Source of the DNA: Thermoanaerobaculia bacterium
Lineage (GTDB): Bacteria > Acidobacteriota > Thermoanaerobaculia > Multivoradales > J023
Length of the DNA: 64,000 bases
Direction: 5' to 3'
Assembly (NCBI GenBank): GCA_028066595.1
Contig: JALCBJ010000005.1
Span: forward strand, 43,933-107,932
The notes under the pieces were generated by a model. That model was not told the DNA's origin, did not search any database, and saw only the letters and a program-made list of their open reading frames with translations. Positions 42,795 to 57,064 of the stretch are shown here, piece after piece; position 1 is the first letter of the stretch, and every line of letters starts with the position of its first letter. The position numbers and the translations under genes are program-made.

Positions 42795-44276
42795 TCAGTC
42801 GACCCGCTGCCAACCTCGTTTTACGCCTTTCTCGATCATCTGCTCCGCCAACCGGGCTGCGGTCTCGCCGTCGGGTGCCAGCCGGACCTCCCGCTGGAGC
42901 GGCTCTTTTCGGCCGGGGCTATAGTCGGTCCAATGCACGACCCAGGCGGGGAATTCGGGGTCGACGTCTTCCTTGTTGGTCTTCCAGACCAGGAGCTTAC
43001 GAACCGCCTTCCGACCCTTCGTCTCCTTGACATAGACCTCTCGGCGTTGGACTTCGCTCTCTGGCCGCTCGATCCTGGCCACCTTTTCGTCCAGCTCTTC
43101 GAGCTGAACCCGTTCCAGGATCTGTCGTGCCCGCACATCGGTGACGTTGACTTCCTTGTCGTCGCGCCTTCGGACGAAAATCGGATGAATCATGCTCGCG
43201 CCGTTCTTTAGCTGAATGGGTGTCCATCCGGTCTGCGCTTCGAAGTCGAGCACCATACGGCGGATAGGCCGACCCTGTCCGTCGTCGACCTGCAGGTCTG
43301 TGACTTTGACCTCGACCACGACCTTGGGCTCCACGAAACGATAGAGCGCACCCGTCGAGCTGGCGAATCGATACTTCGACTCCGCAACGTCCGGGCGCAG
43401 CGCCTGAAACAGCTCTGCGCGGAATGCATCCGTTCCGAGATTGCCACAGGAGCCGAGAACCTGGAACTGTCCGTCTTCCCTCAGAAGAGCGAGGAGAATC
43501 GAGCGGACGTGGTCGGCAGCGTCCGTCTGCTCGGTGAAACCGATGATCGCTGCGTCGAGGTGGAAGACAGGTTTCAGCTTGTAGATGCGGCCGTCGTCCT
43601 GGCGAACGACCAAACCTTCGCCCTTCCCACCCTCGACCCAATCGGAAAAGCGTTGCTGTACTTCCTCGTAGGTATGAACCAGGTCGGTTCGGATCGCCTG
43701 GGCGCGCTGGCCGCCGTCGAAGAGCCGTTGCAGAACGGACAGCCGCTCACGGTATTCGGCGGGCGGATCCGGCGTCTCGGCGTCCCCGCCGGCCACGAGA
43801 TCGAAGGCGAAGAATCCAAGGCGCGCGACGTCGGCGTCTCGGCCTCCTCCGAGGGCAGCCCCAAGGTCGCCAACCCGGGGTCGACCGCCCTTGCGAAGCG
43901 CGAAGAGCTCGCCAGGGACCAGCAGCCAGCCACTCTCGCCGCCGTGAACCCTCGGGACCACGCGCTGCTGAATTTCTTTCATCAGGGGTAGCTCTCCGCC
44001 CAGGACCTTGCCGTTCGGTGCGATGAGAACGGGGTCCTCTTTCGAAGACGCGTCGATTGCCAGATACCAGAGCTGACCATCGATCTTTGGCGAAACGAGC
44101 ATGGGAGCATTGGGCAGCCGCCCGATCTCCTCGGGAGAGATGGCGCGGTAGCGACCGGCGACATTGCGCTTGTAGCCCGATGCACGAGCGGCCAGGTCAG
44201 AGTCGGTGATGCTGCCGGCGGGTGCCAAGAAGCCGTCACCCAATGGTCTCGCGCCGTCTCGGTGGTAGAAGGTCAC
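42795..44276 (-). CDS. ATP-dependent nucleic-acid ligase (nucleotidyltransferase + OB fold) with ~100-aa C-terminal extension
   Basis: Motif I 'SPKIDGQ' (KxDG). Motif III 'VPGELFA'. IIIa 'FFAFDLV'. IV 'EGLVVRQ'. V 'YKLKP'. VI-like 'IHPIFVRRRDDK'. GTG start overlaps the upstream stop (GTGA) per the ORF track. Confidence 0.7.
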   Translation of the reverse strand: MTFYHRDGARPLGDGFLAPAGSITDSDLAARASGYKRNVAGRYRAISPEEIGRLPNAPMLVSPKIDGQLWYLAIDASSKEDPVLIAPNGKVLGGELPLMKEIQQRVVPRVHGGESGWLLVPGELFALRKGGRPRVGDLGAALGGGRDADVARLGFFAFDLVAGGDAETPDPPAEYRERLSVLQRLFDGGQRAQAIRTDLVHTYEEVQQRFSDWVEGGKGEGLVVRQDDGRIYKLKPVFHLDAAIIGFTEQTDAADHVRSILLALLREDGQFQVLGSCGNLGTDAFRAELFQALRPDVAESKYRFASSTGALYRFVEPKVVVEVKVTDLQVDDGQGRPIRRMVLDFEAQTGWTPIQLKNGASMIHPIFVRRRDDKEVNVTDVRARQILERVQLEELDEKVARIERPESEVQRREVYVKETKGRKAVRKLLVWKTNKEDVDPEFPAWVVHWTDYSPGRKEPLQREVRLAPDGETAARLAEQMIEKGVKRGWQRVD

Positions 44277-45010
44277 GGACGATCCGCTTTCTGCTCGGCG
44301 GCTGTGTCTTCAGGTCGAGGCTCAGGCAGCTTCAGCTCCATATTGGAGAGGTGAAGGAGCAACATGTATTTCTCTCCGTCGACCCGGCCTTCCAGGAAGC
44401 CCCGATACGGTGTGCCGTTGCGTTGAAACACGAGGGGGTCCCGGCCCTTGGGTCCAGCGCCGACGATCACCACCTCGTCCGCCTGATCGAGTTCCTGCGC
44501 CATGCCGTGGAGGTAGTCGTAGGTGAGGCCGTCATAGTGCCGAACCTGCAATGTTCTGGCCACTGCGAACCGGCGTACGAGCTCGCCACGAGGGAGACGC
44601 CTGCCGGTCCAGCGGATCGGCAACTCCTCATTGACGTTCGGCTCTACATCTTGCGGTGTGCGGCGCTCTTTCTCGTCGCCAAGAGGATCCAGGATGACTT
44701 CTACCACCTCGGGAGGTGCGTGCAGCACGTCTCCCTCGGCGGAAAGATAGATCTGCATGGTCTCGCCGACGCTGCGCCCGACCTGTTCGAGATCCACTTC
44801 CGGATCGCCGGTGACGAGCGCTTCGCCGTAGTCTTCGCCGAAGCGCTCCAAGAGCTCCTCGTGCAAACCGGTTTCTGTAGCTGCAAGGTAGCGATGAAAC
44901 GAGACATCGTGACCCGGCAGGCCAAGGCGGTAGCGTTCGGCTGCCGCGAGACCGGCGAAGTCGACGGTGGCATCGCGACCCGCAGCATTGGTCAGGTGCA
45001 TCTTACGCAT
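44273..45010 (-). CDS. hypothetical protein (unknown fold), translationally coupled to the ligase
   Basis: 245 aa with no recognisable motifs. ATG at 45008-45010. Confidence 0.45.
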   Translation of the reverse strand: MRKMHLTNAAGRDATVDFAGLAAAERYRLGLPGHDVSFHRYLAATETGLHEELLERFGEDYGEALVTGDPEVDLEQVGRSVGETMQIYLSAEGDVLHAPPEVVEVILDPLGDEKERRTPQDVEPNVNEELPIRWTGRRLPRGELVRRFAVARTLQVRHYDGLTYDYLHGMAQELDQADEVVIVGAGPKGRDPLVFQRNGTPYRGFLEGRVDGEKYMLLLHLSNMELKLPEPRPEDTAAEQKADRP

Positions 45011-45040: not shown

Positions 45041-45646
45041 CTAGAACATCTCGAAATCGAGTTCGTCGTCCAGGTCGTCTGCCCCGTCATCGACGTCCGG
45101 TAGCCGATGGGGCTCGCACCAGTCGGGGGAGGCTGGCTCACCGACCAACGTGAACACATCGCCTTCAGGATTGGCCACGAGAAAGGCCTGGCCCATCTTC
45201 CAGCCGCCGCGGTAGCTGAACGGCAGACGATAGATGTCGCCGGCTCGGAGGGACTCGTGCAGAGCCTCGTCGAAATCCTCCGGGGCGAGGGAATAGACCG
45301 ACTGCACACGTTGGTCCAGGAGGTCTTGTGGGTCTACCGGCCCTTCCAGCTCGACCGGTTCCCCCAGTGTCGACGGTACTTTTTCCAGAGGCTCCCCACC
45401 CTCACCGATCCCTTGCAGATCGCCGAACGGAATCCAATGGCCGTCGCCATCGAAGTAGCCTTGGGCCGTCATTCCGAGGCGCAGCAGCAGTGATCCGTCA
45501 TCGGTAAGAGATGCCCGATTGCAGGGCTCTCCGGCTGGATCGAGGTGGATACGCCGACGTCGGCCGTACAGCCGGCTGCGATCGATCTTGCGGAAGCCGA
45601 AGCTCGAGTTCCTGCCATCTCGTGTGACCACGATGGAGCGTGCCAT
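45041..45646 (-). CDS. hypothetical protein with acidic C-terminus
   Basis: 201 aa ending 'DVDDGADDLDDELDFEMF'. Its start is 46 nt downstream of the giant kinase gene stop. Confidence 0.4.
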   Translation of the reverse strand: MARSIVVTRDGRNSSFGFRKIDRSRLYGRRRRIHLDPAGEPCNRASLTDDGSLLLRLGMTAQGYFDGDGHWIPFGDLQGIGEGGEPLEKVPSTLGEPVELEGPVDPQDLLDQRVQSVYSLAPEDFDEALHESLRAGDIYRLPFSYRGGWKMGQAFLVANPEGDVFTLVGEPASPDWCEPHRLPDVDDGADDLDDELDFEMF

Positions 45647-45692: not shown

Positions 45693-48600
45693 CTACAGCT
45701 CGATCTGTGCCGAGCCGCGAATCTTCAGCTCTTCGTAAGAGACCTCTGGTCGACTGTAGCGAAGACGTAACCCATCGATGCCCGGGCGCACCAAACACCA
45801 GCTCTGTTCGTGGAACAGGGGTACGAGATAGGCGTGCTCGGTCAAGCGGCGTTCGAACTCCAGGTACAGTGTGTGCCGTGCCTCGCGGTCGCTCTCGAGC
45901 AATGCTCGGTCCGCGAGGTGGCTGAGCTCCAGGTCGTCCCATTGGCGGGCCGTCGGGCCGTGCGCGATGGCCTGGGCGAACGATGCCGGGTCCGGGTAGT
46001 CGGCGATCCATCGATTGAAGACCACGTCGATTGCACCAAGGGAGGTCGAACGGAGTGTCTCCGAGAAATCTGCATGGGTGGGCACTACACGAACACCGAC
46101 GATCTCCAGCGCACCACGGATCTTGCGCCAGAGCTGGCGGTACTCGGCACCGTAGCCGGGATGGAGCGCAACGTTCAGTGTCAGTCCGTCGAGTCGCTCG
46201 GCGCCGGCGGTCGCAGATGCATGGGAGGAATCGGTCGTCGGATCAGAGAGCCCCAGGAGGCTCGGCGGGACTAGCCGGTTCGCCGGCCGACCCAACCGGC
46301 CCAGGGTTGATGGCAGCTCGGACCGAATGTTCGAAAGGAGAGCGGCCAGACTGCGCCGACAACCCGGGTCTGCCAGAGGGCCACGGACAGAAGTCAGTGT
46401 CGCAAAATAGGTAGAAAACGAGGGCTGCTCCATCAGACCCGCGGCATAGTCTGGCCGCCGGCTGAATGCCTCGAGATCCTCGGCAGCGAGTGTCGAGACC
46501 ATCGACAGCCGGCCTGAAGCGAAATCCTCGGCGGCTTGTTCTGGTTCGGTGCCCAACTCGAAGACCATCTCCGCGACCTTGGGCAGAGCGGGCTGGCGAT
46601 AGTCTCCGTTCGCTACCAAGTCGACCCGGCGACCCGGTTGGAAGTCTACGAGTCGAAAAGGCCCCGTCCCCGCGGTACCGTGACGCCAGGTAGGGCCAAA
46701 TTCCTCGGTTCCTTCCGGCACGATGGCCGTGGCGGCGTTCGACAGTAAGGCGGGGAAGTGCGGCACAGGTCGAACGAGAATCAGCTCCAACAGGTGCTCA
46801 CCGACGACCTGCACTCCGGTCAAGTCACCTCTTTCTTCTGCGGTCTCGCGGGCGCCTTCCAGAGCATCCAAGAAGCAATGCAGATCGGGGCTGCCGTGGG
46901 TCAGCAAGCGTCGAAATGAGTAGCGGACGTCGCGAGCCGTGAGGTAGCGACCGTTGTGGAATCGCGTCTTTCGTAGAGTGACGCGCCACCGCCGTCCACC
47001 GTCGTCCGACTCGAGATGCTTCGCGAGATGGGGCACCGCGTTCGCGGTCTCGTCGAGACGGGTCAGAGGCTCGAAGATGTTGGATACCACTTCGGCCGCA
47101 TCCACGTGGACGCACCATGCGGGATCGAGGGTGTCGACGTGTCCACCGAGAGCTACCACCAGACGACCGTCGCGGCGTTCAACCTCGTCCGGGCGGTCTC
47201 TTGGTCGCAAGCTCAGGCGGCTGTAGTTGACGAAGGGCGGCGTGGGGGAGGTTGCAAGGCCTCGGACCCGAGACGACATCAGTCGATACTCGACGTCATG
47301 AAATAGCGGCTGCACCAGATGTCGTCCGAGCAGGAGCTGCTCGAGGTGTCGGTATCGCCTGGTGCGCTCCTCGGAGTCCTTACAGAATCTGGCCTCTTCG
47401 ATCTGGGTGTCCAGCTCCCCGGAGGCGAAGAGAGATCGAAACAGGCCCGCCGAGGAATGGAAGGCGCCATAGAAGAATCCGTCGGGATCAGGATAGTCGG
47501 GCCACCAACGAGCGAATACCAGGTCGAAATCGGCTGGCTCGTTCATCTGACGAGCGAATTCGGCGATCGATACCTGGTGCCTATCGACGTCGATGCCGAG
47601 CCGGCTCCAGGCCTGACACAGAGCATCGGCGATGGGGCGATATTGATCGCTGAAGGCAGGGTGTTCGATCGCCCTCAGCCGAAGGGGCAGAGTGTGGAGG
47701 AATTCCATCGCTCGCAGCGCTTCGTCGTGCGGCATGGTGTCGGGGCGACCGTCGGCATGGTGATCGGAGATTCCTGGAGGCAGCCACCCCACGAGGGGCG
47801 TGGCGAAGCGAGGCAACGTCTTCCAGACGATCTGGGTTACGTCGACAGATGTGGCCAGCACGCGGCGTAGCTCCGGATCCCCCAGCGCCGGACCCCGAGG
47901 GTTGAGCAAGGTGAAGTAGACGTTGTTCTGAGGTGTGTCCGCTAGCCGATCGCTTCCCGGGCGTCTTTGGAACTCGGCTACGTCGGATGGAGAGAGATCG
48001 CGAGCCAGATCGAGCTCGCCTCGGCGCCAGGCAGCCGCAATGTCTCGGCTGTGGCGAAAGAACTCGACTTCCATTCGATCGACGAAGGGGTGGAGAGGAT
48101 GAGAGTCGTTGCGGGTCAGGACCAAGCGCTCTGGGCTACGGTGTGCGAGGCGAAATGCTCCGGTACCGATCGGTGGTGTGTCGCCGTCGTACCGGAGCGC
48201 GACCGCGATGCGTGGATCCGACAACAGCGCCGGGAATGCGGCCAGGGGGTCGCGAAGCCGGATCAACAACTCTTTCTCGTTTGGAGCGGCGACCTCGGCT
48301 ACCACGTCGAGCGCCGCGGGTCGTCTGCCAGCCGCAAGACGAGCTGCCTGGCGCAGCGAGGTCTGAACTGTCGTTGCGGTCAGTGGAGTACCGTCGCTGA
48401 AGGTTCGCCTCGTGTCGATTCGAAAGCGATAGGTCAGGCCATCGTCCGAGCACTCCCAAGAGGGTCCTAGGCACGGGTGAAGTGCACCGTCGGCGCTCGC
48501 GCGGAGGAGGGGCTCGAATATCAGTTGGGAGATCTCGGCGTCCTGCGCCGAAATCGCGTCCGTCGGATCGAGCCCGGTGAACGAACGGATCATGGCCACT

Positions 48601-51470
48601 CGAAGTGTGCCGCCGGGTGCTTCCGGTGAATCGGTCCAGGTTTCGGCACGTAGGCGGGCCGCCTCGCCCAAGAGCTGGCGTCCCTCTTCGCTCTGGCCAG
48701 CCAGGTTCCGGACCGTGCCGCCGAGGCTGAGTAGGGATCCAAGTGTTTCGCGCGCCGGCTCGCCTGCCAAGCGAGCCCATCCGATTCCGAGCTCGAGCCA
48801 GGATCGGGTCTCTTCGATCCGTTGGGCTCGCCAAGAGGTCTCGGCAAGAAAAAGGGCGATGTCGGCCATCGTGGCGGCAGATTCCTTGGTGGCTTCAAAG
48901 TCGCTCTCTTCTTCCTGGAGCTCCATTGAAAGGCGGTCGAACATTTGCTGACCTTCGGCCATCGCTTCTGAAATCAGACCCTTCGCGGCCAGGGCTGTGG
49001 CGCGTGCGCGCCGGAGCTCGATCTCGACGTTGACCTGGGCTTCGTCAACGAATCCGAGAGCTAGGTCGCAGGCGGACAGGGCATCGTCCCAGTGGCAGGT
49101 CGCGACGAAACGGCGGGCCTGCATCGAGCCGTAGCGAAGAGCTTCCGACGCCACACGAGCTTCTGCGAAATGGTGCAGCAGCTCCAGCGCCCTTCGACGG
49201 ACCTGTCCGGAGGGCCGGCGGGATAGGGATCGTGCCCGACGTAGATGGAGCCGCCGGCGTCGTTCGGCTGGTATTTGGCGATACACCACCTCGCGCACGA
49301 TGCCATTGGTGAAACGTAGGTTCCGCCCGCGCCGTCCGGAAGGGTGCTTCTCCAGCAGGCCCCGGGCGATCAATGTGTCGACAGCCTTCTCAAGATCCTC
49401 GGTGGAGAGCTCGAGGGGAAGCTCCGATGATTCGTTCTCGGTAAGAGCCGCAATGGCTACGAGATCTTCGAGGTCGCGCTCCATGACGTGATGACCCAGG
49501 ATCGACGCTGCTTCTACGACCAGCAGTGGTCGCTCTCTCAGCCTTTCCAACTTGGCCTCGACTGCCTGACGAACGCTCGAGGGTAGAACTCCGGCAAGCG
49601 GTAGGCCATCGGCAGTTCTCGTGGCGCCCGAAACGCGGAGCTCGTCTCCCCGACCCGGAGTAGGCTCCTCCGATTTCGCCAGGGCGTGGAGTAGCTCGGA
49701 GGTGAAGAACGGACTTCCGTTCGTGGCCTCGAAGATCCTGCGGATCAAGTCCGGGTCTGCAGGCGCGCCGAGTACTTCTTCGACCAACTCGGTGTGTTCA
49801 TCGACTCCTAGAGGGCCGAGATGAATCTCCCGGAAGCGCGGATCGGCTCGCAGCCCACCGATCGATCGGGCCAGTGGATGCGTCCGCGGCACCTCGGTCG
49901 GACGATAGGAGGCGACCAAGAGAATCGGCGCCGAAGACAGGCGGCGAAGCAGATACTGGAGGAAGCCGACCTCCATATTTGCCTGGTGAATCTGTTCCAT
50001 CACGAGAACGCACGGCCGCCCATGGGCCATGCGGCCCAAGGTGCGCGCGATCAGCTCGCCGTGCTGGTTCGGTTCGTCGGAATGACCCGGCCGCTCGACT
50101 CCGCGAGCCGCTTCGCGAATCGCGGGCACTTCCGCGAGTGCCGGAAACGCCGCAGAGAGCTCCGCTGCCAAGCTGCTCAGGTCTGGCGGGATACGGTCGG
50201 TCGGCTCGATGTCGCCATCTGCGGATCCGTTCGAGCCCAGTCGCCCAGGATCGGACTCCATGTTAGAGGAGCCACCAGAAGAGGCCTCCGAGACCGCTTC
50301 ATCAAGCTGTAGGAAGTAGTCCTCGACCAGCTCGTAGAAGGCGCCGTACTTGTTGGGGCCTTCTGCTTCCGCGAAGCTTCCGTGGAGAACGAGCGCGTGC
50401 CGACTCCGCGCTTCGTCCTCTAGAGCCTCGAGAAGCCGTGTCTTGCCCGATCCCGTGTCGCCGGAGACGAACACCAACTGCAGCGCACCAGGCTCGGCTC
50501 GCTCCAAGGCACGTCGTAGTTTTTCGAGTTCCTGATTCCGGCCGATCAGTGGTGGCTCGGACTTCCTGGCCCGGCGGCGCCGGTGCCGGTGTCCGGCCGG
50601 TCTCGTATCGGTCTCGTCGATGCGTCCACCGACTGCGCGCAGCGCTCGGGCGAGCTCGCTACCGGTTTGGATCCGATCCTCGGGATCTTTCTCCAAACAA
50701 GTGCGGAGCACGTCCAGGAGCAACGGATCCGTGAAATCCGCTTCCGGAAACTCAGGCGTCTCGTGGACGATGCGGTAGAGAACCGAGGGCGAGGCGCCAC
50801 CAAACGGTGGTCGGCCGAAGAGGCTCTCGTAGAGAATGATCCCGACGGAATAGAGGTCGGAACGACCGTCGAGGTCCGGATTCGACAGGATCTGTTCGGG
50901 ACTGAGATAGGCCAGTGTACCGGGCAAGATACCGGTCTTGGTGAGTCGGGTCGAAGTGCGGCACAACGCCAGCCCGTAGTCCATCACCTGGACGCGCCGC
51001 ACCGCCTCCACACCCTCGCCGCCATCGAGTGCGATCATGAGGTTCTCGGGTTTGATGTCGCGGTGCACAACGCCGCGACTAGCGCTGTGGTCGAGCGCTT
51101 CAGCGACTCGAGCCAAGATCTCCAAGATCTGGATCAGGGGAGGTGGTCGGTCGTGCAGCAGGCGGTGCAATGTCTCTCCCTCGAGGAGGGGCATCACAAA
51201 AAAGAGCTGGTCTTCGTCCCGTCCGAAGTCGTAGATCGGAACGACGGCTGGATGATCGAGTCGGCCCACCAGCCGAGCTTCGCGCTGGAACCGCCGGATC
51301 GCGTCCTTCCTTAGGCCTTCTGCTGCCAGCACCTTGACTGCGACCTCTCGATGCAATGCTCGATCGGTCGCGCGATACACGGTGGCCATGCCACCTTGTC
51401 CGAGCTCGGCCCGCGTCTCGTAGCGACCCGCCAAGCAACGTCCGATCACGGAGATCCGCCTGCAGGCCAT
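45693..51470 (-). CDS. giant multidomain protein: Hanks-type Ser/Thr kinase + STAND/AAA_16 NTPase + TPR-like helical region + two tandem family-5 solute-binding-protein (DppA/OppA-like) domains; predicted cytoplasmic
   Basis: Kinase: 'GQGGMATVYRA', 'HRDIKPENLM', 'DYGLA', 'GTLAYLSPE'. NTPase: Walker A 'GDTGSGKT'. SBP5 starts 'GGTLRVAMIRSFTGLDPTDA' and 'RLVVALGGHVDTLDPAW'. No signal peptide or TM helix anywhere. ATG at 51468-51470; the 390-nt in-frame extension to 51860 is low-complexity and contains a hairpin. Confidence 0.8.
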   Translation of the reverse strand: MACRRISVIGRCLAGRYETRAELGQGGMATVYRATDRALHREVAVKVLAAEGLRKDAIRRFQREARLVGRLDHPAVVPIYDFGRDEDQLFFVMPLLEGETLHRLLHDRPPPLIQILEILARVAEALDHSASRGVVHRDIKPENLMIALDGGEGVEAVRRVQVMDYGLALCRTSTRLTKTGILPGTLAYLSPEQILSNPDLDGRSDLYSVGIILYESLFGRPPFGGASPSVLYRIVHETPEFPEADFTDPLLLDVLRTCLEKDPEDRIQTGSELARALRAVGGRIDETDTRPAGHRHRRRRARKSEPPLIGRNQELEKLRRALERAEPGALQLVFVSGDTGSGKTRLLEALEDEARSRHALVLHGSFAEAEGPNKYGAFYELVEDYFLQLDEAVSEASSGGSSNMESDPGRLGSNGSADGDIEPTDRIPPDLSSLAAELSAAFPALAEVPAIREAARGVERPGHSDEPNQHGELIARTLGRMAHGRPCVLVMEQIHQANMEVGFLQYLLRRLSSAPILLVASYRPTEVPRTHPLARSIGGLRADPRFREIHLGPLGVDEHTELVEEVLGAPADPDLIRRIFEATNGSPFFTSELLHALAKSEEPTPGRGDELRVSGATRTADGLPLAGVLPSSVRQAVEAKLERLRERPLLVVEAASILGHHVMERDLEDLVAIAALTENESSELPLELSTEDLEKAVDTLIARGLLEKHPSGRRGRNLRFTNGIVREVVYRQIPAERRRRLHLRRARSLSRRPSGQVRRRALELLHHFAEARVASEALRYGSMQARRFVATCHWDDALSACDLALGFVDEAQVNVEIELRRARATALAAKGLISEAMAEGQQMFDRLSMELQEEESDFEATKESAATMADIALFLAETSWRAQRIEETRSWLELGIGWARLAGEPARETLGSLLSLGGTVRNLAGQSEEGRQLLGEAARLRAETWTDSPEAPGGTLRVAMIRSFTGLDPTDAISAQDAEISQLIFEPLLRASADGALHPCLGPSWECSDDGLTYRFRIDTRRTFSDGTPLTATTVQTSLRQAARLAAGRRPAALDVVAEVAAPNEKELLIRLRDPLAAFPALLSDPRIAVALRYDGDTPPIGTGAFRLAHRSPERLVLTRNDSHPLHPFVDRMEVEFFRHSRDIAAAWRRGELDLARDLSPSDVAEFQRRPGSDRLADTPQNNVYFTLLNPRGPALGDPELRRVLATSVDVTQIVWKTLPRFATPLVGWLPPGISDHHADGRPDTMPHDEALRAMEFLHTLPLRLRAIEHPAFSDQYRPIADALCQAWSRLGIDVDRHQVSIAEFARQMNEPADFDLVFARWWPDYPDPDGFFYGAFHSSAGLFRSLFASGELDTQIEEARFCKDSEERTRRYRHLEQLLLGRHLVQPLFHDVEYRLMSSRVRGLATSPTPPFVNYSRLSLRPRDRPDEVERRDGRLVVALGGHVDTLDPAWCVHVDAAEVVSNIFEPLTRLDETANAVPHLAKHLESDDGGRRWRVTLRKTRFHNGRYLTARDVRYSFRRLLTHGSPDLHCFLDALEGARETAEERGDLTGVQVVGEHLLELILVRPVPHFPALLSNAATAIVPEGTEEFGPTWRHGTAGTGPFRLVDFQPGRRVDLVANGDYRQPALPKVAEMVFELGTEPEQAAEDFASGRLSMVSTLAAEDLEAFSRRPDYAAGLMEQPSFSTYFATLTSVRGPLADPGCRRSLAALLSNIRSELPSTLGRLGRPANRLVPPSLLGLSDPTTDSSHASATAGAERLDGLTLNVALHPGYGAEYRQLWRKIRGALEIVGVRVVPTHADFSETLRSTSLGAIDVVFNRWIADYPDPASFAQAIAHGPTARQWDDLELSHLADRALLESDREARHTLYLEFERRLTEHAYLVPLFHEQSWCLVRPGIDGLRLRYSRPEVSYEELKIRGSAQIEL

Positions 51471-51632
51471 CTGCCGTCGGTGCGCTCTTCCAGGTCCGAG
51501 ATGCCGACCGTTCGGTTGGTATCTAGCGCGTACGACACTCTCATCGAGCTCTTGATTCGATGACCACGGTCTTCGACCCTCAGGGTGCTCGGCTCCTGAG
51601 AGGGACCCGTTTCCTACGCCCAGATACAACGA

Positions 51633-51681
51633 GGCCCCCTCCGGTTGGCGTCCCGCGAGGGACGGTCGGAGGGGGCTTTTT
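51633..51681 (+). terminator. orphan intrinsic-terminator-like hairpin (GC stem + TTTTT) on the plus strand, in the 5' region of the giant kinase gene
   Basis: gccccctccg...cggagggggc followed by ttttt, with a nested gtccc/gggac stem. No plus-strand gene is evident upstream. Confidence 0.3.
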
Positions 51682-52030
51682 ACCCCGAGCCCCCCTCGTG
51701 GTAAAAGCAGGTCCGAAGACCGTGAAGCGTAGATTCCAAGGCGTTGCAGTGGGCCGTTGGAGCCGAATGAAGAGAAGTTGTCGCGAAGTCTCGGGTGATG
51801 CCCCCCAGCGACCACCCTCGCCTCCGCGACGCCATTTAAGAACTGCATTCGGCGTGCCAACTTCTCCGCCGAGAGTCGGAAATCTCGTATCCGCCAACAG
51901 ATCCGAAGAGCGCTATCCGAGGAAGTGTGTTGATTTTCAACGGATTTCGACGCATCTTAGCCCGAAGAAAGAGATCGAGGCGGTCTCATCATGCGACGGA
52001 GCTTGGCGTAGAACACTTGGTTTCTGGGTC

Positions 52031-52086
52031 AAAAACCGTGGGAGTTTTTCCCATGTGGGGAGTTCCTCCAGGTTGGAGTAACTCCC
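52031..52086 (-). terminator. candidate terminator of the ABC-2/sulfatase-like operon (two hairpins, second followed by a T-tract on the minus strand)
   Basis: Hairpins ggggagtt..aactcccc and tggga..tccca, then cggttttt on the minus strand. They sit 30-80 nt past the 52113 stop. Confidence 0.35.
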
Positions 52087-52112: not shown

Positions 52113-54401
52113 TCAGAGGTAGCCGAGGGCTTCGAGGCTCCGGCGCGTCTCTTCGTCGAGATCGACGCCTTGGTCTTCGTGTGCCGCGGTCTCGCGACAG
52201 TCGCCAAGCTGCCGACGGATGAGCGAGCCAAGGAAACCCAGACGTACCGGATGCTGCGACGAAAGGTCGTACTTCTCGCCCGGATCGTGTGAGGCTTCGT
52301 AAAGCTGCCATCGACGTTCGGGGCGCAATCCGGTCTCGGGATCGCAGCCCGCTCGGAACTCCACGATCGCTTTGAAGCTACCGCGGAGGATGGAAGCCCG
52401 CTCCGCCCCGTCGAGGTGGAGGTGGCTGAACAGGGTACGCGGGTGAGAGTGCTCCGGAGAGGGCAGCAGGAGGTCGATTCCACGAGCTCCGGCAGGAACC
52501 GGAGCGCCGACCCGTCGCAGGATCGTTGGCAGGATGTCGATGTGCTGCACCGACCGGTCTATCTTTCGCGGCTCGACACCAGGCCAGTGCAGGGCCATCG
52601 GTACCCGAAGCGACTCCGAGTGGAGAGCGCGGCCGTGCTCCAGGTTGCCGTGTTCGAGAAATTCTTCGCCATGGTCGGAAACGAAGAGCACGGCCGGCTC
52701 GTCGATACCTCGGCTCGAAAGCGACTCGAGGAACTGCCCGAAGGCCTCATCGGCCGCAGCGATCTCTGCCTGGTAGAGGCGGTGTAGCTCTTCGAGCACT
52801 GCGGCCGATCGAGGAATCCTGCCCTGTCGCAAGTCGTTCAGGCGTCGGAGCGAATCCTGCGCCCGTGCGGCCGACGTTCCAGGAGCCATTCGCTCGCGCC
52901 ATGCAGCCGGCGGATCGTAGGGCGAGTGAGGATCGAGGACGTGAACGTAGACGAAGAGTGGGCTGGCGGCCAGATCGTCCCCCAGCGCTTCCAGCCGGCG
53001 CTCTACCGCACGGTTTACTTCGAAGGCATCCGCTTCCTCACCCAGATATTCGAAATGGTCGAATCCTCGGTCGAAGCCAAAGGTCTTGGTGAGGTTCGGA
53101 TTGGTGACGACGGCCTCGGTCCGCCATCCGTTGCGCTGGAGTATCTCTGGCAGGGCCGGCAGGTCGTCCCGTAGACGGTCGTCCCGGTCGATGGCGCCGT
53201 GGCTGGGTGGCCACATTCCAGTGAAGATCGAGGCGACCGAAGCCTTGGTCCAGGAAGACTGTGCGACGGTATGCCGGAACACTACCGACGTGGAAGCGAA
53301 TGCATCGAGGTGAGGTGTGGGTACGGGGCCCGCCGTCCATGTGTCTCGTGCCCAAGCCGAGAGATGATCGGCCCTCAACGTGTCGACCACATAGAGGACG
53401 AAGACCCGCGGGACCTGCAGATCGGGCACCACCGAATCGGGTGTCGGGTCGGCGATGGAGGCTTCGGACGTTGTTGTCGAAATCCGAGGCCGAAGCAATA
53501 CGATGCCGTCGGCGGGAACGTCACTACCGTGTCGATCGGGCAGAGCCGAGAATCGGAGTCGCACGAGCCCACGGTCACCGAGCGGAACAGGCCGAAGAGG
53601 TGTTTCGGTGAGATCTAGATCCGACGTCCGGAGCGCCTCGCTGTCTCCAGCTGTAGCCGGGGTAGGCGCGGGGACGTCGCGAGACACCTGGATCGCGAGT
53701 CGCCCGGAACCGCGAAGGCTGAGGTGATCCACCTCGAGGAACGAGCGCTCCGTGAGTTCCAGGAATACATCCAGCCGACTGTCCCAGGGCAGAATGATGC
53801 GATCGTCTTCGACCACCGGACGCCCACTTCGACCGACTGGGCGACCGTCGGCGAGGGCGATACCCGTCCAGGCCGCCGCCAGCCGTCGCGAATCGCGAGA
53901 CGACGTGACATCCGACGGCTTGGTGGCGCGCGAGAACACAAGTCGCAGTGCGTTGTCACCTGTCTGCCACAGCCCAGCTGGCACGTCGACACGGTACTCA
54001 CCGAGGCCCGGTGCCATGTCGAAGTGGCCGACGCTCTGCCAGCCCCCGACGCTGTTTCTGATTTCGACACCAACGGACTGCGAAGGCGCGCCCTGCCAGC
54101 GGTACGGCCAGCCGCGTAGTACGAGCACTTCGTCCCTGGGCTCGAGTACGGTCCAGGCGATCTCCGACGCCTCGCCCACAGCCCACACGAACGGGCGGCC
54201 AGCCGAGTCCCGTTCGGGGTTGGCCCAGCCGGATCGTAGGTGAAGGGCCGGGTTCGATAGATCGAGCCGATGGGTCGCTGCTGCGGAATCACCCCACTTC
54301 GCGACATCGGTCAGTGAGGCAACCGGAGTCAACGGAGGTGACTCGGAATGGCAGCCCGCGAGCACCGACAGCAGCAGGAGGAGCCAGGTCAGCCGGGTCA
54401 T
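52113..54401 (-). CDS. lipoprotein with two N-terminal beta-rich domains and a C-terminal sulfatase-like alkaline-phosphatase-superfamily domain (Thr-type, no CxPxR)
   Basis: Lipobox 'LSVLAGC'. 'VVDTLRADHL' metal/nucleophile motif. 'FVSDHGEEF'. ATG overlaps the upstream permease stop (ATGA). Confidence 0.7.
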   Translation of the reverse strand: MTRLTWLLLLLSVLAGCHSESPPLTPVASLTDVAKWGDSAAATHRLDLSNPALHLRSGWANPERDSAGRPFVWAVGEASEIAWTVLEPRDEVLVLRGWPYRWQGAPSQSVGVEIRNSVGGWQSVGHFDMAPGLGEYRVDVPAGLWQTGDNALRLVFSRATKPSDVTSSRDSRRLAAAWTGIALADGRPVGRSGRPVVEDDRIILPWDSRLDVFLELTERSFLEVDHLSLRGSGRLAIQVSRDVPAPTPATAGDSEALRTSDLDLTETPLRPVPLGDRGLVRLRFSALPDRHGSDVPADGIVLLRPRISTTTSEASIADPTPDSVVPDLQVPRVFVLYVVDTLRADHLSAWARDTWTAGPVPTPHLDAFASTSVVFRHTVAQSSWTKASVASIFTGMWPPSHGAIDRDDRLRDDLPALPEILQRNGWRTEAVVTNPNLTKTFGFDRGFDHFEYLGEEADAFEVNRAVERRLEALGDDLAASPLFVYVHVLDPHSPYDPPAAWRERMAPGTSAARAQDSLRRLNDLRQGRIPRSAAVLEELHRLYQAEIAAADEAFGQFLESLSSRGIDEPAVLFVSDHGEEFLEHGNLEHGRALHSESLRVPMALHWPGVEPRKIDRSVQHIDILPTILRRVGAPVPAGARGIDLLLPSPEHSHPRTLFSHLHLDGAERASILRGSFKAIVEFRAGCDPETGLRPERRWQLYEASHDPGEKYDLSSQHPVRLGFLGSLIRRQLGDCRETAAHEDQGVDLDEETRRSLEALGYL

Positions 54402-55186
54402 GACGAGGCCGACGAATAGGCGCGCAGGCCGCGCTGCCAAAACCAGGCCACAAAACTGAAGAAAAGTAGGGTCACCGTCACGACGTGGGCCCAACCCAGG
54501 GCGGACGGCGCGTCGAAGAGAGCGTGAGCCGGGAAGGAACTGGCGAATGCCACCGGTAGGATCGTGAGCAGTGTCCAGCGTAGCCACGGGTGATAGATCT
54601 GATGGGGGCGGTCCGAGAGCTTGTTGAGGGACCAGCTGATCTCGTCGAGACCGCGTGACGAATGAAGCCAGAACACGGGAATGATGAAGGCCATGCGAAC
54701 CAGATAGTAGAGGAGGCTTCCCACCAACAAGAGCACACCGAAGCGCAACAGATCGAACAAGCCGAGGGTTTGAGGGAAGCGCCAGAGGGCCCAGGTCATG
54801 AAAGCCACGGCCATCGCCAGGTTGAGGAAGCTATTGGCGGCGAACTCCCGCAGACTGAGAAAAAAGAGCGACGACACCGGGCGGACGAGGTAGTAGTCGA
54901 GGTCTCCACGGTTGACGTAGATCGGCAGCCACCACAGATTGTTCGAGAACACCGTCATGTGGATCGCGTCCACCAAGAAGACGCCGCCGATAAAGACGTA
55001 GATCTGATCGAGTGTCCAGCCGCCGAGGAGGTCTGTGTGGTCATACAGAACGGTGAAGAACGCGAACTGGACGACGTAGAAGACGAGGTCCATGAAGATA
55101 CGAAAGAAGAAGTCGAGGCGGAACTCGAGTGCCCGCGAGAACGAGAAGCGCAGGAAGTAGCCGTAGAGCTTCAGATAGCGCAGCAT
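54398..55186 (-). CDS. ABC-2 family transporter permease
   Basis: 262 aa with 6 TM helices. N-terminus 'MLRYLKLYGYFLRFSFSRALEFRLDFFF' is typical of this family. Confidence 0.7.
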   Translation of the reverse strand: MLRYLKLYGYFLRFSFSRALEFRLDFFFRIFMDLVFYVVQFAFFTVLYDHTDLLGGWTLDQIYVFIGGVFLVDAIHMTVFSNNLWWLPIYVNRGDLDYYLVRPVSSLFFLSLREFAANSFLNLAMAVAFMTWALWRFPQTLGLFDLLRFGVLLLVGSLLYYLVRMAFIIPVFWLHSSRGLDEISWSLNKLSDRPHQIYHPWLRWTLLTILPVAFASSFPAHALFDAPSALGWAHVVTVTLLFFSFVAWFWQRGLRAYSSASS

Positions 55187-55211
55187 GGTTGCCTGTTCAC
55201 GTGGGTGCTCA

Positions 55212-56057
55212 TCAGATTCCTACTCCGGTGTAGGTCTTCTGGCCGCGCTTCCAGACGATCGCTGCCAGCAGGCTCATCACGACGCACCATCCCGCCAAGA
55301 GCGCCATTCCCATCCACCATTCCTGCTGCGAGACTTCTCCGAGGAGAGTGCGCGTGGGGAACGAGAAGAAGAATCGGAACGGTAGCCAGCTGAGAAACGC
55401 TTGGGTCGCTTCGGGAAAGACTGCCAAGGGAATCATCATGCCGCCGAGGATCTCGGCCGTGAACCGCAGCAAGACGTTGAGGCTCCACACATTGTCGGAC
55501 CAGAACGAGACGAACTGGATCGGTAGCCGGGTGACGAACCACAGCAGATTGGCCAGTAGCACAGCGGGGACTGTCAGGGCGACGGTCGTCGCACTGATCT
55601 CCAGGTCGGCGGAGACGATGTTGGCGAATGGCAAGGCGAAGAAGGCCAGAATCGCTCCGACCTGCAGAAGAGAGGGAAGGAGAGCTCCTACCTGCTCAGC
55701 GTACTTGAAGCCCGTGTAGGGTGCCGGATAGAGCAGGTATCGCGTCAGGCCACCCTCGTAGATATCCTGGGACACGGTGATATCGCGTTCGCGTCCGCGT
55801 GCCAGCCGACCTACCATGAGCACCACCACGTAGTAGATCACCATGTCCGGCAAGGTATAGCCGGCGATGACCTCCTGTCCCGAGCCAGCGAAGATGGCCT
55901 TCCAGAGGAAATATGCGACCGCGAGCTCGACGGCGAAAGCGGCGAAGGAGTTGAGCCAGAAGTCGACGCGATAGCTCATCTGCTTTCGCGCTTCCATGGA
56001 CAAGACCTGCCAGAAGAGATCGGGGCGCCAACGAGCGGCGAGCGAGGTGCGGACCAT
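55212..56057 (-). CDS. ABC-2 family transporter permease (start 56057 overlaps ATPase 3' end by 82 nt; alternative ATG 55979 gives ATGA coupling)
   Basis: 6 TM helices. N-terminus 'MVRTSLAARWRPDLFWQVLSMEARKQMSYRVDFW' looks native. Confidence 0.65.
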   Translation of the reverse strand: MVRTSLAARWRPDLFWQVLSMEARKQMSYRVDFWLNSFAAFAVELAVAYFLWKAIFAGSGQEVIAGYTLPDMVIYYVVVLMVGRLARGRERDITVSQDIYEGGLTRYLLYPAPYTGFKYAEQVGALLPSLLQVGAILAFFALPFANIVSADLEISATTVALTVPAVLLANLLWFVTRLPIQFVSFWSDNVWSLNVLLRFTAEILGGMMIPLAVFPEATQAFLSWLPFRFFFSFPTRTLLGEVSQQEWWMGMALLAGWCVVMSLLAAIVWKRGQKTYTGVGI

Positions 56058-57064
56058 CCTGAGAGCTCAGTCCTCGCGGGCTCGTTGGAGCCGCTCGATG
56101 ATGTTGCCCAGGGCTCCTCTTCGATCGACAGGTCGGCCACGTCGAGGCATTCCATCAGTGCTGCTGCTGCCCGTGGTGCGCGTTCGCGCGGCACCTCGAG
56201 GGCGACCACGCCGTCCTCCGCTCCTACGCGCCGTGCCTCGACGTCCTCCACCAGCCTCTCCAGACGGAGGGTGTCTTCCGGTGCAGGAGAGCTATGAAGC
56301 ACGGCGGTCAACCGTTTGAACCGTGCGAAGCTCTCGACTACTTTGCGTCTTGAACCGTCGTACACCAGCCGCCCCTCGCGAAGGATGAGGATCCTTTCGC
56401 ACAGGCTTTCGATGTCATCCATATAGTGCGATGTGACGATCATCGCGGGTTGGAACCGTCGACGATATTCGAGGACGAATTCGCGGACGGCGCGTTGGGC
56501 GCTGAGATCGAGGCCGATGGTGGGTTCGTCGAGGTACACCACCCGCGGCGAGTGCAGTAGCGCAGCGATCAGCTCCATCTTCATGCGCTCGCCCAGGGAC
56601 AGACGCCGCAATTGAACGTCGAGCTGATCGGTGGCTTCCAGCAGATTCGCCAGGTAGTGGAGGTTCTGGCGATATAGATCTCGCGGTATCTGATAGATCC
56701 CGCGGAGCAGCAAGAACGCATCGGCCGCCGGCAGGTCCCACCAGAGCTGAGCCTTCTGGCCCATGATCAGAGCGATCCGTCGCCTCAGCTCGTTGTCGCG
56801 CCGCCAAGGTTGGTGCCCGAGCACCCTGGCTTCGCCCGACGTAGGATGGACGACGCCTGCGAGCATCTTGACCAGTGTCGTTTTGCCGGCACCGTTGGCG
56901 CCCACGAGCCCGACGACTTCTCCCTCTTCGACACGGAACGAGACTTCGCGCACCGCGTGTTTCGCTACCTTGTGGCGCAGCACGAGGGATTTCATGGATT
57001 GCCAGAGGCCAGGTGCCTTGCGGTGGACGTAGAACGTCTTGCTGAGTTGGTCGACCGAGATCAT
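55976..57064 (-). CDS. ABC transporter ATP-binding protein with C-terminal extension
   Basis: Walker A 'GANGAGKTT'. Signature 'LSLGERMK'. Walker B 'VVYLDEPT'. Confidence 0.85.
   Translation of the reverse strand: MISVDQLSKTFYVHRKAPGLWQSMKSLVLRHKVAKHAVREVSFRVEEGEVVGLVGANGAGKTTLVKMLAGVVHPTSGEARVLGHQPWRRDNELRRRIALIMGQKAQLWWDLPAADAFLLLRGIYQIPRDLYRQNLHYLANLLEATDQLDVQLRRLSLGERMKMELIAALLHSPRVVYLDEPTIGLDLSAQRAVREFVLEYRRRFQPAMIVTSHYMDDIESLCERILILREGRLVYDGSRRKVVESFARFKRLTAVLHSSPAPEDTLRLERLVEDVEARRVGAEDGVVALEVPRERAPRAAAALMECLDVADLSIEEEPWATSSSGSNEPARTELSGWSAPRSPLVGAPISSGRSCPWKRESR

Follow-up and report, generated by a model that had tools for sequence, protein, structure and literature searches.

A predicted cytoplasmic kinase-STAND protein with two tandem solute-binding domains and its family in Acidobacteriota

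A stretch of 64,000 nucleotides from a Thermoanaerobaculia bacterium of the phylum Acidobacteriota (assembly GCA_028066595.1, contig JALCBJ010000005.1, positions 43,933 to 107,932), referred to as the window, carries on its minus strand a gene for a protein of 1,925 residues. In this protein a Hanks-type Ser/Thr kinase, a nucleoside triphosphatase (NTPase) module of the signal transduction ATPases with numerous domains (STAND) type, a helical arm and two substrate-binding protein domains of family 5 (SBP5) follow each other in one reading frame (Table 1). An earlier note, made by a model from the sequence alone, had proposed kinase, STAND NTPase and two SBP5 domains for a single open reading frame (ORF) of about 1,925 residues, and Pfam profiles, fold and frame agree with this. 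Its coordinates were also right, and the strand, which it did not give, can be added.

The gene and the domains of its product

The longest ORF on this strand begins at a TTG codon and spans 2,055 codons (45693-51860). The ATG at 51470 gives the protein of 1,925 residues, and the N-terminus read from it, MACRRISVIGRCLAGRYE, matches the family consensus start MIGTxLxxRYE; the coordinates of the shorter version are thus considered correct. The 130 codons 5′ of this ATG appear to be non-coding, and nothing corresponds to them in relatives. A protein on a 174-kb ENA contig (P0001) is 100% identical to that of the window, and the same cluster includes NCBI entry MDA8016498.1 from a Thermoanaerobaculia metagenome-assembled genome (MAG). 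No second copy of the gene was found within the window.

Table 1 Features at the locus and variants of the domain cassette. Coordinates refer to the window unless a locus (L) is named.
Feature	Coordinates	Strand	Residues or size	Basis or remark
Kinase-STAND-2xSBP5 coding sequence	45693..51470	minus	1,925 aa + stop	ORF list and translation
Hanks-type Ser/Thr kinase domain	50616..51422	minus	~17-285	Pfam Pkinase
STAND-type NTPase module	49311..50558	minus	~305-720	AAA_16, Walker A, predicted secondary structure
Ser/Gly/Asp-rich insert in P-loop domain	50073-50279	minus	~398-466	Predicted disordered
Helical repeat arm	48636..49304	minus	~723-945, 11 helices	All-helical model, high pLDDT
SBP5 domain 1	47229..48620	minus	~951-1414	Pfam, PDB sequence search, AlphaFold2, Foldseek
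SBP5 domain 2	45756..47192	minus	~1427-1905	PDB sequence search, Foldseek
Two-hairpin element in 5′ leader	51633..51705	minus		232 nt upstream of ATG; alignment, consensus fold
First hairpin, TTTACCACGAGGGGGGCTCGGGGTAAAAA	51677-51705	minus	29 nt	Followed by long GC-rich hairpin
Sigma-54-like -24/-12 sequence (tentative), TGGCACgccgaATGCa	51844..51859	minus		Read from sequence; upstream of leader
ENA-called ORF (probably spurious)	51560-52081	plus	173 aa	No family match
Downstream gene 1	45041-45646	minus	201 aa	No Pfam, NCBIfam or PADLOC match
Downstream gene 2	44273-45010	minus	245 aa	No Pfam, NCBIfam or PADLOC match
Downstream gene 3	42795-44276	minus	493 aa	ATP-dependent DNA ligase C-terminal domain; weak, sub-threshold adenylation domain
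Sulfatase-family lipoprotein	52113-54587	minus	762 aa as called	Downstream of exporter
ABC-2 exporter	54398-57064	minus		ATPase and two membrane proteins
Variant P0006				Two kinase domains on NTPase-arm-SBP5 cassette
Variant P0164	L091 1267-7821			SIR2_2 and kinase on cassette
Variant P0155	L092 9001-14142			Trans_reg_C, OmpR/SARP-type winged helix, on cassette
Variant P0204	L093 4927-10113			HTH_3, XRE-type helix-turn-helix, on cassette
Variant P0131				Cassette without N-terminal domain
Variants P0135, P0192				One SBP5 only

The matches to the three Pfam families Pkinase, AAA_16 and SBP_bac_5 all exceed the curated cut-offs. For Pkinase (PF00069) the match covers residues 17-268 with an E-value of 3e-43 (148.5 bits, with a cut-off at 31.7), and NCBIfam describes this N-terminal kinase as PknB-like. 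The motifs of an active kinase are present (GQGGMATV, K46, E64, H136-R137-D138...N143, D164-Y-G and S190-P-E) and, from the glycine-rich loop to S/APE, vary little or not at all among 100 homologues. The model of the N-terminal part has the bilobal kinase fold and, in structure searches, matched kinases only. The kinase was said to be complete, which is borne out by profile, motifs and fold; its catalytic motifs are intact and phosphotransfer activity is putative.

The NTPase module is recognized by Pfam AAA_16 over residues 307-519 (3.4e-19, 70.4 bits, cut-off 32.6). Its Walker A motif reads G337-x2-G340-x-G342-K343-T344, with G337, G340, G342 and K343 being invariant in the 100 homologues, so that the Walker-A STAND/AAA_16 module of the earlier note is confirmed. 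The Walker B-like segment is hhhhE492, where E492 is followed by Q/N and is the single acidic residue. A further conserved motif reads N-G-S-P-F-F in the window protein and EGNPFF in the family, and we take it to be the motif of GxP type that AAA_16 regulators usually have. Secondary structure prediction places a beta-alpha P-loop core at residues 331-551, a helical bundle at 556-600, and helices together with a beta-hairpin, resembling a winged helix, at 631-720. Profile match, motifs and modular architecture together support membership in the AAA_16 group of STAND proteins. Within the P-loop domain there is an insert rich in Ser, Gly and Asp for which disorder is predicted; the predicted local distance difference test score (pLDDT) falls below 50 at residues 402-421, a stretch peculiar to the window protein, and most relatives are devoid of the insert.

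The arm lies between the NTPase and the two SBP5 domains. It had been called a helical, TPR-like region. The helical nature is seen in the model, but the likeness to TPR is weak, as the helical region 511-950 alone has no Pfam match even at E<=10 and the TPR-like profile signal is marginal (IFIT1, E 0.02).

The C-terminal half of the protein is made up of the two SBP5 domains. Pfam SBP_bac_5 matches in two stretches (1.1e-93, 314.8 bits), and NCBIfam models of the OppA, NikA, GsiB and DppA kind match in two separate regions. In a PDB sequence search, each copy aligns over nearly the whole length of binding proteins of 490-520 residues. The nearest solved relatives by sequence are AapF, NikA, CtaP, AgaA and YliB for domain 1, and 8upi, MppA and OppA for domain 2. 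AlphaFold2 modelled residues 941-1925 with a pLDDT of 90.9 and a predicted template modelling score (pTM) of 0.82, the latter suggesting that the two modules may pack as one unit. When each half of the model was compared by Foldseek with solved SBP5 proteins, target-normalised template modelling scores of 0.80-0.87 were obtained at 18-22% sequence identity (AapF 0.87, MppA 0.84, 8upi 0.83, NikA 0.82-0.83, OppA 0.81). The proposal of two full-length SBP5 domains thus holds by Pfam, by the PDB alignments and by the AlphaFold2/Foldseek comparison alike.

Identity between the two domains is 29.5% over about 500 residues (E 3e-36). Each is nearer to the corresponding domain of relatives than to the other domain of the same protein, and the duplication is therefore old. 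Both retain the W-x-x-D-Y segment which aligns with W416-D419 of OppA. In domain 1 it lies within R1321-W-W-P-D1325-Y-P-D-P-D, conserved at the level of at least 90%; in domain 2 it lies within R1820-W-I-A-D1824-Y-P-D-P, which HMMER aligns with W-C-A-D-Y-N-E-P of OppA. The Asp of the segment is kept in both domains; for domain 1 its conservation is at least 90%, for domain 2 at least 80%. From the structural work on OppA and DppA, we take the equivalent residue, Asp419 of OppA, to anchor the alpha-amino group of the ligand. The conserved Asp may hint at a ligand that bears an amino group and is peptide-like.

Binding proteins of this family are normally periplasmic receptors of transporters. 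The highest Kyte-Doolittle mean over 19 residues is 1.25, from which it follows that there is neither a transmembrane helix nor a signal peptide. Among 120 homologues, windows of at least 1.6 are scattered over inconsistent positions of the core, and no conserved transmembrane segment is apparent. This agrees with the earlier claim that both types of segment are absent. The SBP5 domains have no signal peptide or lipobox of their own; they begin at residues ~951 and ~1427, behind enzymes of the cytoplasm. A cytoplasmic location is predicted. The only ABC genes in the window belong to an ABC-2 exporter upstream of a sulfatase gene, and when 104 flanking ORFs of related loci were ranked by Pfam family, no permease of the Opp/Dpp type appeared among the 25 commonest families. 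Since both an export signal and a permease partner are lacking, a role in transport is excluded.

A family with exchangeable outputs and sensors

A homologue search covered 5.8 billion proteins and returned at least 120 full-length homologues of 1,853-2,166 residues, with 99% query coverage, 34-45% identity and the same set of Pfam domains. They stem from ENA, NCBI, JGI and Logan assemblies, with contigs of 1.8 and 4.5 Mb among them, and nearly all of them are from Acidobacteriota MAGs. Conservation continues unbroken through every domain junction. A scan of one genome per species yielded 432 matching stretches. With few exceptions, the best 78 loci belong to MAGs of Acidobacteriota (Thermoanaerobaculia, Blastocatellia/Pyrinomonadaceae, Vicinamibacteria and Chloracidobacterium). 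Two or three loci each come from about ten of the MAGs, and there is no cultured isolate among the 78.

An assembly chimera, a frameshift and a pseudogene were considered and rejected, given the uninterrupted frame of 1,925 codons and the occurrence of at least 120 proteins of the same architecture in independent assemblies. The earlier note had named chimera and frameshift as what would overturn its reading; the fusion is real, with the same end-to-end architecture in at least 120 proteins and in the 78 loci.

The gene of the window is an ordinary member of a large family that is deposited and automatically annotated, and that is uncharacterised. In the databases, its members go by the names 'ABC transporter substrate-binding protein', 'oligopeptide transport system substrate-binding protein' or 'AAA family ATPase', and MDA8016498.1 is named 'DUF2791 family P-loop domain-containing protein' at NCBI. 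These public names are misleading, and none of them reflects the architecture of kinase, STAND NTPase and sensor.

The part that follows the kinase is found with other partners as well. With the arm (residues 560-950) as query and a threshold of E<=1e-10, 154 clusters formed at 50% identity were retrieved, kinase-AAA_16-TPR proteins among them. Proteins with a kinase and two SBP5 domains represent the main class among the arm-sharing architectures. Others have the cassette of NTPase, arm and SBP5 joined to a second kinase domain, to SIR2_2 and a kinase, to either of two types of DNA-binding domain, or to no N-terminal domain (Table 1). On the sensor side, there are members with a kinase and a single SBP5; it is of the domain-2 type, and these proteins have 1,332-1,393 residues and complete ends. 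A variant restricted to SBP5 domain 1 (P0145) was discarded, as it proved to be a partial gene. Two relatives (P0232 and P0237) have TPR_12/TPR_MalT at the position of SBP5. Outputs that are swapped on a constant NTPase-sensor core, and sensors that are swapped on a constant NTPase, are a hallmark of STAND signalling, and a modular architecture of effector, NTPase and sensor with interchangeable effectors and sensors is what we find.

In some loci, members of the family are arranged as head-to-tail arrays. There are four genes in L006 (1-21129) and two in L008 (10001-21478), and some of the genes in these arrays overlap by their stop and start codons. Between the paralogues of L006, sequence identity decreases along the protein, from 91-98% in the kinase to 73-84% in the NTPase, 59-75% in the arm, 56-70% in SBP5 domain 1 and 52-67% in SBP5 domain 2. 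The ratio of nonsynonymous to synonymous substitution rates (dN/dS) between tandem paralogues, a rough estimate after Nei and Gojobori, is 0.04-0.15 for the kinase and 0.35-0.69 for SBP5. By these sequence comparisons, the SBP5 domains are the fastest-evolving part of tandem paralogues.

Genomic neighbourhood and 5′ leader

The closest relatives (P0002, P0003 and P0004) are 42-45% identical to the window protein. A sulfatase gene is found directly upstream, with a gap of 560-660 bp, in all four loci of this closest sub-clade, the gap being 640 bp in the window. The sulfatase-family lipoprotein has the lipobox LAGC after an internal Met, and the genes for the ABC-2 exporter are located further upstream on the same strand. 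A fifth related locus (L053) also has the sulfatase upstream, with a gap of about 200 bp and without the conserved leader motif described below.

Three genes on the same strand follow the kinase gene, one of them a ligase, as had been noted. The same trio occurs in L011, where its genes code for 200, 242 and 500 residues. It was considered as a possible operon with the kinase gene and this was rejected: the trio is absent downstream of P0003 and P0004, and in L011 a gene for 721 residues on the opposite strand intervenes. The trio is an uncharacterised ligase-associated module that is unrelated to the kinase gene.

Neighbours were surveyed more broadly by BLAST clustering of 610 ORFs from 83 loci and by a Pfam census of the 104 flanking ORFs. 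ORF calls were filtered by GC content at third codon positions against long antisense ORFs. Recurring neighbours are only generic kinases and ABC ATPases, and no family occurs in more than four neighbours. FHA, PP2C and defence genes are absent from the most frequent families among the 104 flanking ORFs. A survey of other genomes for the architecture and its conserved neighbours, as proposed by the earlier note, thus found that the architecture recurs and that no neighbour is conserved across the family.

The region between sulfatase and kinase gene has a conserved element of two hairpins. The 29-mer TTTACCACGAGGGGGGCTCGGGGTAAAAA that forms the first of them shows no difference between the four distinct loci of the closest sub-clade, despite proteins that are only 42-45% identical. 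Its counterparts (L002 9728-9752, L009 9807-9831, L011 4440-4464) are located 190-270 nt upstream of the kinase gene. The long GC-rich hairpin shows compensatory changes, with three compensated pairs in the consensus fold. The minimum free energy of the leader is -46.2 kcal/mol (z -2.3). No match was found in Rfam, no exact match in JGI metagenome contigs, and the leader is absent from the more distant loci of the family. It may represent a 5′ leader, an attenuator or a small RNA that is specific to the closest sub-clade. Upstream of it, TGGCACgccgaATGCa is tentatively read as a sigma-54-like -24/-12 sequence; the aligned position is occupied by a perfect TGGCACG-N4-TTGCT in L011, and not in L002 or L009. 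An ORF on the opposite strand that was called by ENA spans the conserved leader region; it is probably spurious, as no counterpart has been called in related loci.

A putative ligand-gated switch and its place among known systems

On balance we favour, with some confidence, the interpretation that the protein is a ligand-gated cytoplasmic STAND switch, in which the pair of SBP5 domains together with the arm serves as sensor, the AAA_16 module as switch and the kinase as output. A sensor role of the SBP5 domains is supported by the reuse of the cassette with other outputs, by their faster divergence, and by the lack of an export signal and of a permease. The earlier note considered them to be the sensing inputs: their sensor position is upheld by cassette reuse, by the exchange against TPR and by the rapid evolution of SBP5, while the sensing of a ligand is a step further. 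Everything beyond SBP5 at the sensor position we infer from MalT-type and NLR-type proteins and from PknB. When no ligand is present, the sensor and the arm would keep the NTPase closed, ADP-bound and monomeric. A small ligand from the cytoplasm, probably one that resembles a peptide or otherwise bears a free amino group, would enter one or both SBP5 clefts and close the flytrap. This would free the arm and allow the exchange of ADP for ATP, followed by oligomerisation. The clustered kinases could then autophosphorylate in trans at the conserved activation-loop residues T177/T179, as in PknB, and would subsequently phosphorylate unlinked substrates.

Several observations weigh against this interpretation. 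With one acidic residue in Walker B, ATP hydrolysis may be slow or absent. The winged-helix part was assigned from predicted secondary structure alone. Sequence and profile searches with residues 300-950 against the PDB gave no significant match to a solved STAND protein, structure searches with the N-terminal model returned kinases alone, and hhalign against E. coli MalT, with a single-sequence template, gave a non-significant probability of 8.9%. The segment W-x-x-D-Y-x-D-P, on which the hint at an amino-bearing ligand is based, is also a general motif of the SBP5 fold. Part of the gradient between tandem paralogues may be due to gene conversion, as dS is lower in the kinase region (0.23 versus ~0.6). 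Finally, no conserved neighbour pointing to a pathway emerged from the clustering of 610 ORFs or from the census of 104.

The arrays of two to four paralogues, in which a conserved effector is combined with a divergent C-terminal sensor, and the presence of several copies per genome are also reminiscent of immune or conflict-type STAND receptors of the Avs/NLR kind. SBP5 would then recognize a peptide or protein from a phage or competitor, and the kinase or SIR2 would execute an abortive or defensive response. SIR2_2, a common defence effector, is indeed N-terminal in one relative, there is a weak Pfam match to BrxC_BrxD at the P-loop, and NCBI uses the name DUF2791 P-loop protein. However, the PADLOC matches all lie within residues 9-364, which is almost entirely generic kinase, and there are none in the arm or in SBP5; matches so placed tell nothing about defence. 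The flanks consist of housekeeping genes (for example for glutamine synthetase, peroxiredoxin, tRNA synthetase and MFS transporters), defence genes are missing from the most frequent flanking families, and the context of the SIR2 variant is ordinary. Synteny with the sulfatase is kept at 42-45% protein identity, as one would expect of vertical inheritance and not of a mobile defence island, and the variants with helix-turn-helix outputs point to gene regulation. We consider an immune function to be unlikely.

It also seems improbable to us that SBP5 serves as a module for protein interaction or substrate recruitment, clamping unfolded termini or peptides, or as a scaffold for oligomerisation, with the NTPase answering to another cue. 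OppA-type SBP5 proteins are known to bind peptides largely by backbone contacts, the high pTM of the tandem pair would suit a rigid body, and the sequence does not name a ligand. Yet DNA-binding outputs, which need no kinase substrate, are joined to this SBP5 cassette as well, SBP5 is located where relatives have TPR sensors, and the fold-defining motifs of the cleft are kept in both copies. In our view there is a negligible probability that the protein is an artefact (a pseudogene, or a mis-assembly or fusion of a kinase gene with a transporter SBP gene) or that it is exported to serve an ABC importer as binding protein. The transporter-type names in the databases would suit an importer, but they are outweighed by the intact frame, by at least 120 independent fusions, by the lack of transmembrane and signal segments and by the lack of Opp/Dpp partners nearby.

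If the protein is indeed a ligand-gated switch, it is a case where the SBP5 fold of transporters has been recruited as the sensor of STAND NTPases, across several kinds of output, which extends the sensor repertoire beyond repeat domains. A more far-reaching idea, which we put forward as doubtful, is that Acidobacteria have a repertoire of cytoplasmic 'flytrap receptors', where SBP5 pairs recognize a ligand on behalf of NLR-like STAND switches that have kinase, SIR2 or DNA-binding outputs and are arranged in arrays of up to four. This would represent an undescribed class of intracellular receptors that survey peptides or amino-bearing molecules, possibly foreign ones from phages or competitors. 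To our knowledge, most bacterial Hanks kinases have no recognisable ligand-binding input. The kinases of the family would have a built-in sensor for which the ligand can be identified experimentally, as few folds are easier to de-orphanise with thermal-shift screens and crystallography, and a single polypeptide could allow a direct test of the path from signal via switch to phosphorylation. How bacterial Hanks-type kinases become activated is recognised as an open question (PMC6069109). Members of the family are plentiful in Acidobacteriota of soil, a phylum that is dominant yet little understood, and their misleading names would inflate the counts of peptide transporters in metagenome surveys.

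A description of a kinase-SBP5 or STAND-SBP5 fusion was not found in the literature, including a STAND survey from 2026, with subscription journals being mostly outside the coverage. The earlier note likewise knew of no characterised kinase-STAND protein with duplicated SBP5 sensors; no paper on the fusion was found, but its claim of novelty was overstated in view of the large deposited family and of the precedent set by SgrR and DsvR (see below).

Among known systems, the kinase-AAA_16-TPR_MalT proteins such as P0232 share the N-terminal Hanks kinase, AAA_16 and the helical region with the window protein, and the arm is detectably homologous; they differ in having TPR/MalT-type repeats at the C-terminus where the window protein has two SBP5 domains. 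PknK from Mycobacterium tuberculosis presumably resembles the window protein in the order of kinase, AAA_16 and helical region and in being soluble and cytoplasmic, with a different sensor. MalT, AfsR/SARP-type and GutR-type regulators follow the same logic, in which a ligand is sensed at the C-terminus and an NTPase switch acts on the attached output. The variants P0155 and P0204, with Trans_reg_C and HTH_3, respectively, are the transcription-factor versions of the cassette. In contrast to these regulators, the window protein has an N-terminal kinase as output, and SBP5 rather than a superhelical repeat as sensor. The earlier description as PknK/MalT-like is thus appropriate for the domain logic, but homology to MalT was not borne out by hhalign.

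The Avs/NLR-like proteins share the order of effector, NTPase and sensor, the diversification of the sensor and, in one relative, a SIR2 effector. They differ from the window protein, which has no defence match in arm and SBP5, is not located in a defence island, and has a sensor fold that binds small molecules. With OppA, MppA, DppA, NikA and AapF (SBP family 5, cluster C), the window protein shares the full-length fold and the W-x-x-D-Y segment. In the window protein, however, SBP5 is duplicated in tandem and placed behind a kinase and an NTPase, and there is no lipobox and no adjacent permease or ATPase gene.

The flytraps of BvgS and EvgS belong to another SBP family and act via a membrane-spanning histidine kinase. 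Two tandem Venus-flytrap domains, which are periplasmic, feed a protein kinase there (PMC4352136). The window protein, in contrast, is predicted to be wholly cytoplasmic, with a STAND NTPase that would couple the flytraps to a Hanks kinase. A cytoplasmic SBP5 sensor has its nearest precedent in SgrR/DsvR, where a helix-turn-helix domain is combined with SBP_bac_5; this domain has no export signal, is cytoplasmic and is presumed to be the ligand sensor (PMC13060122). SgrR is a one-component protein with a single SBP5 and without NTPase or kinase. The window protein has no helix-turn-helix domain and its match to the NCBIfam model of SgrR is weak (3e-11, 42.7 bits against a cut-off of 476).

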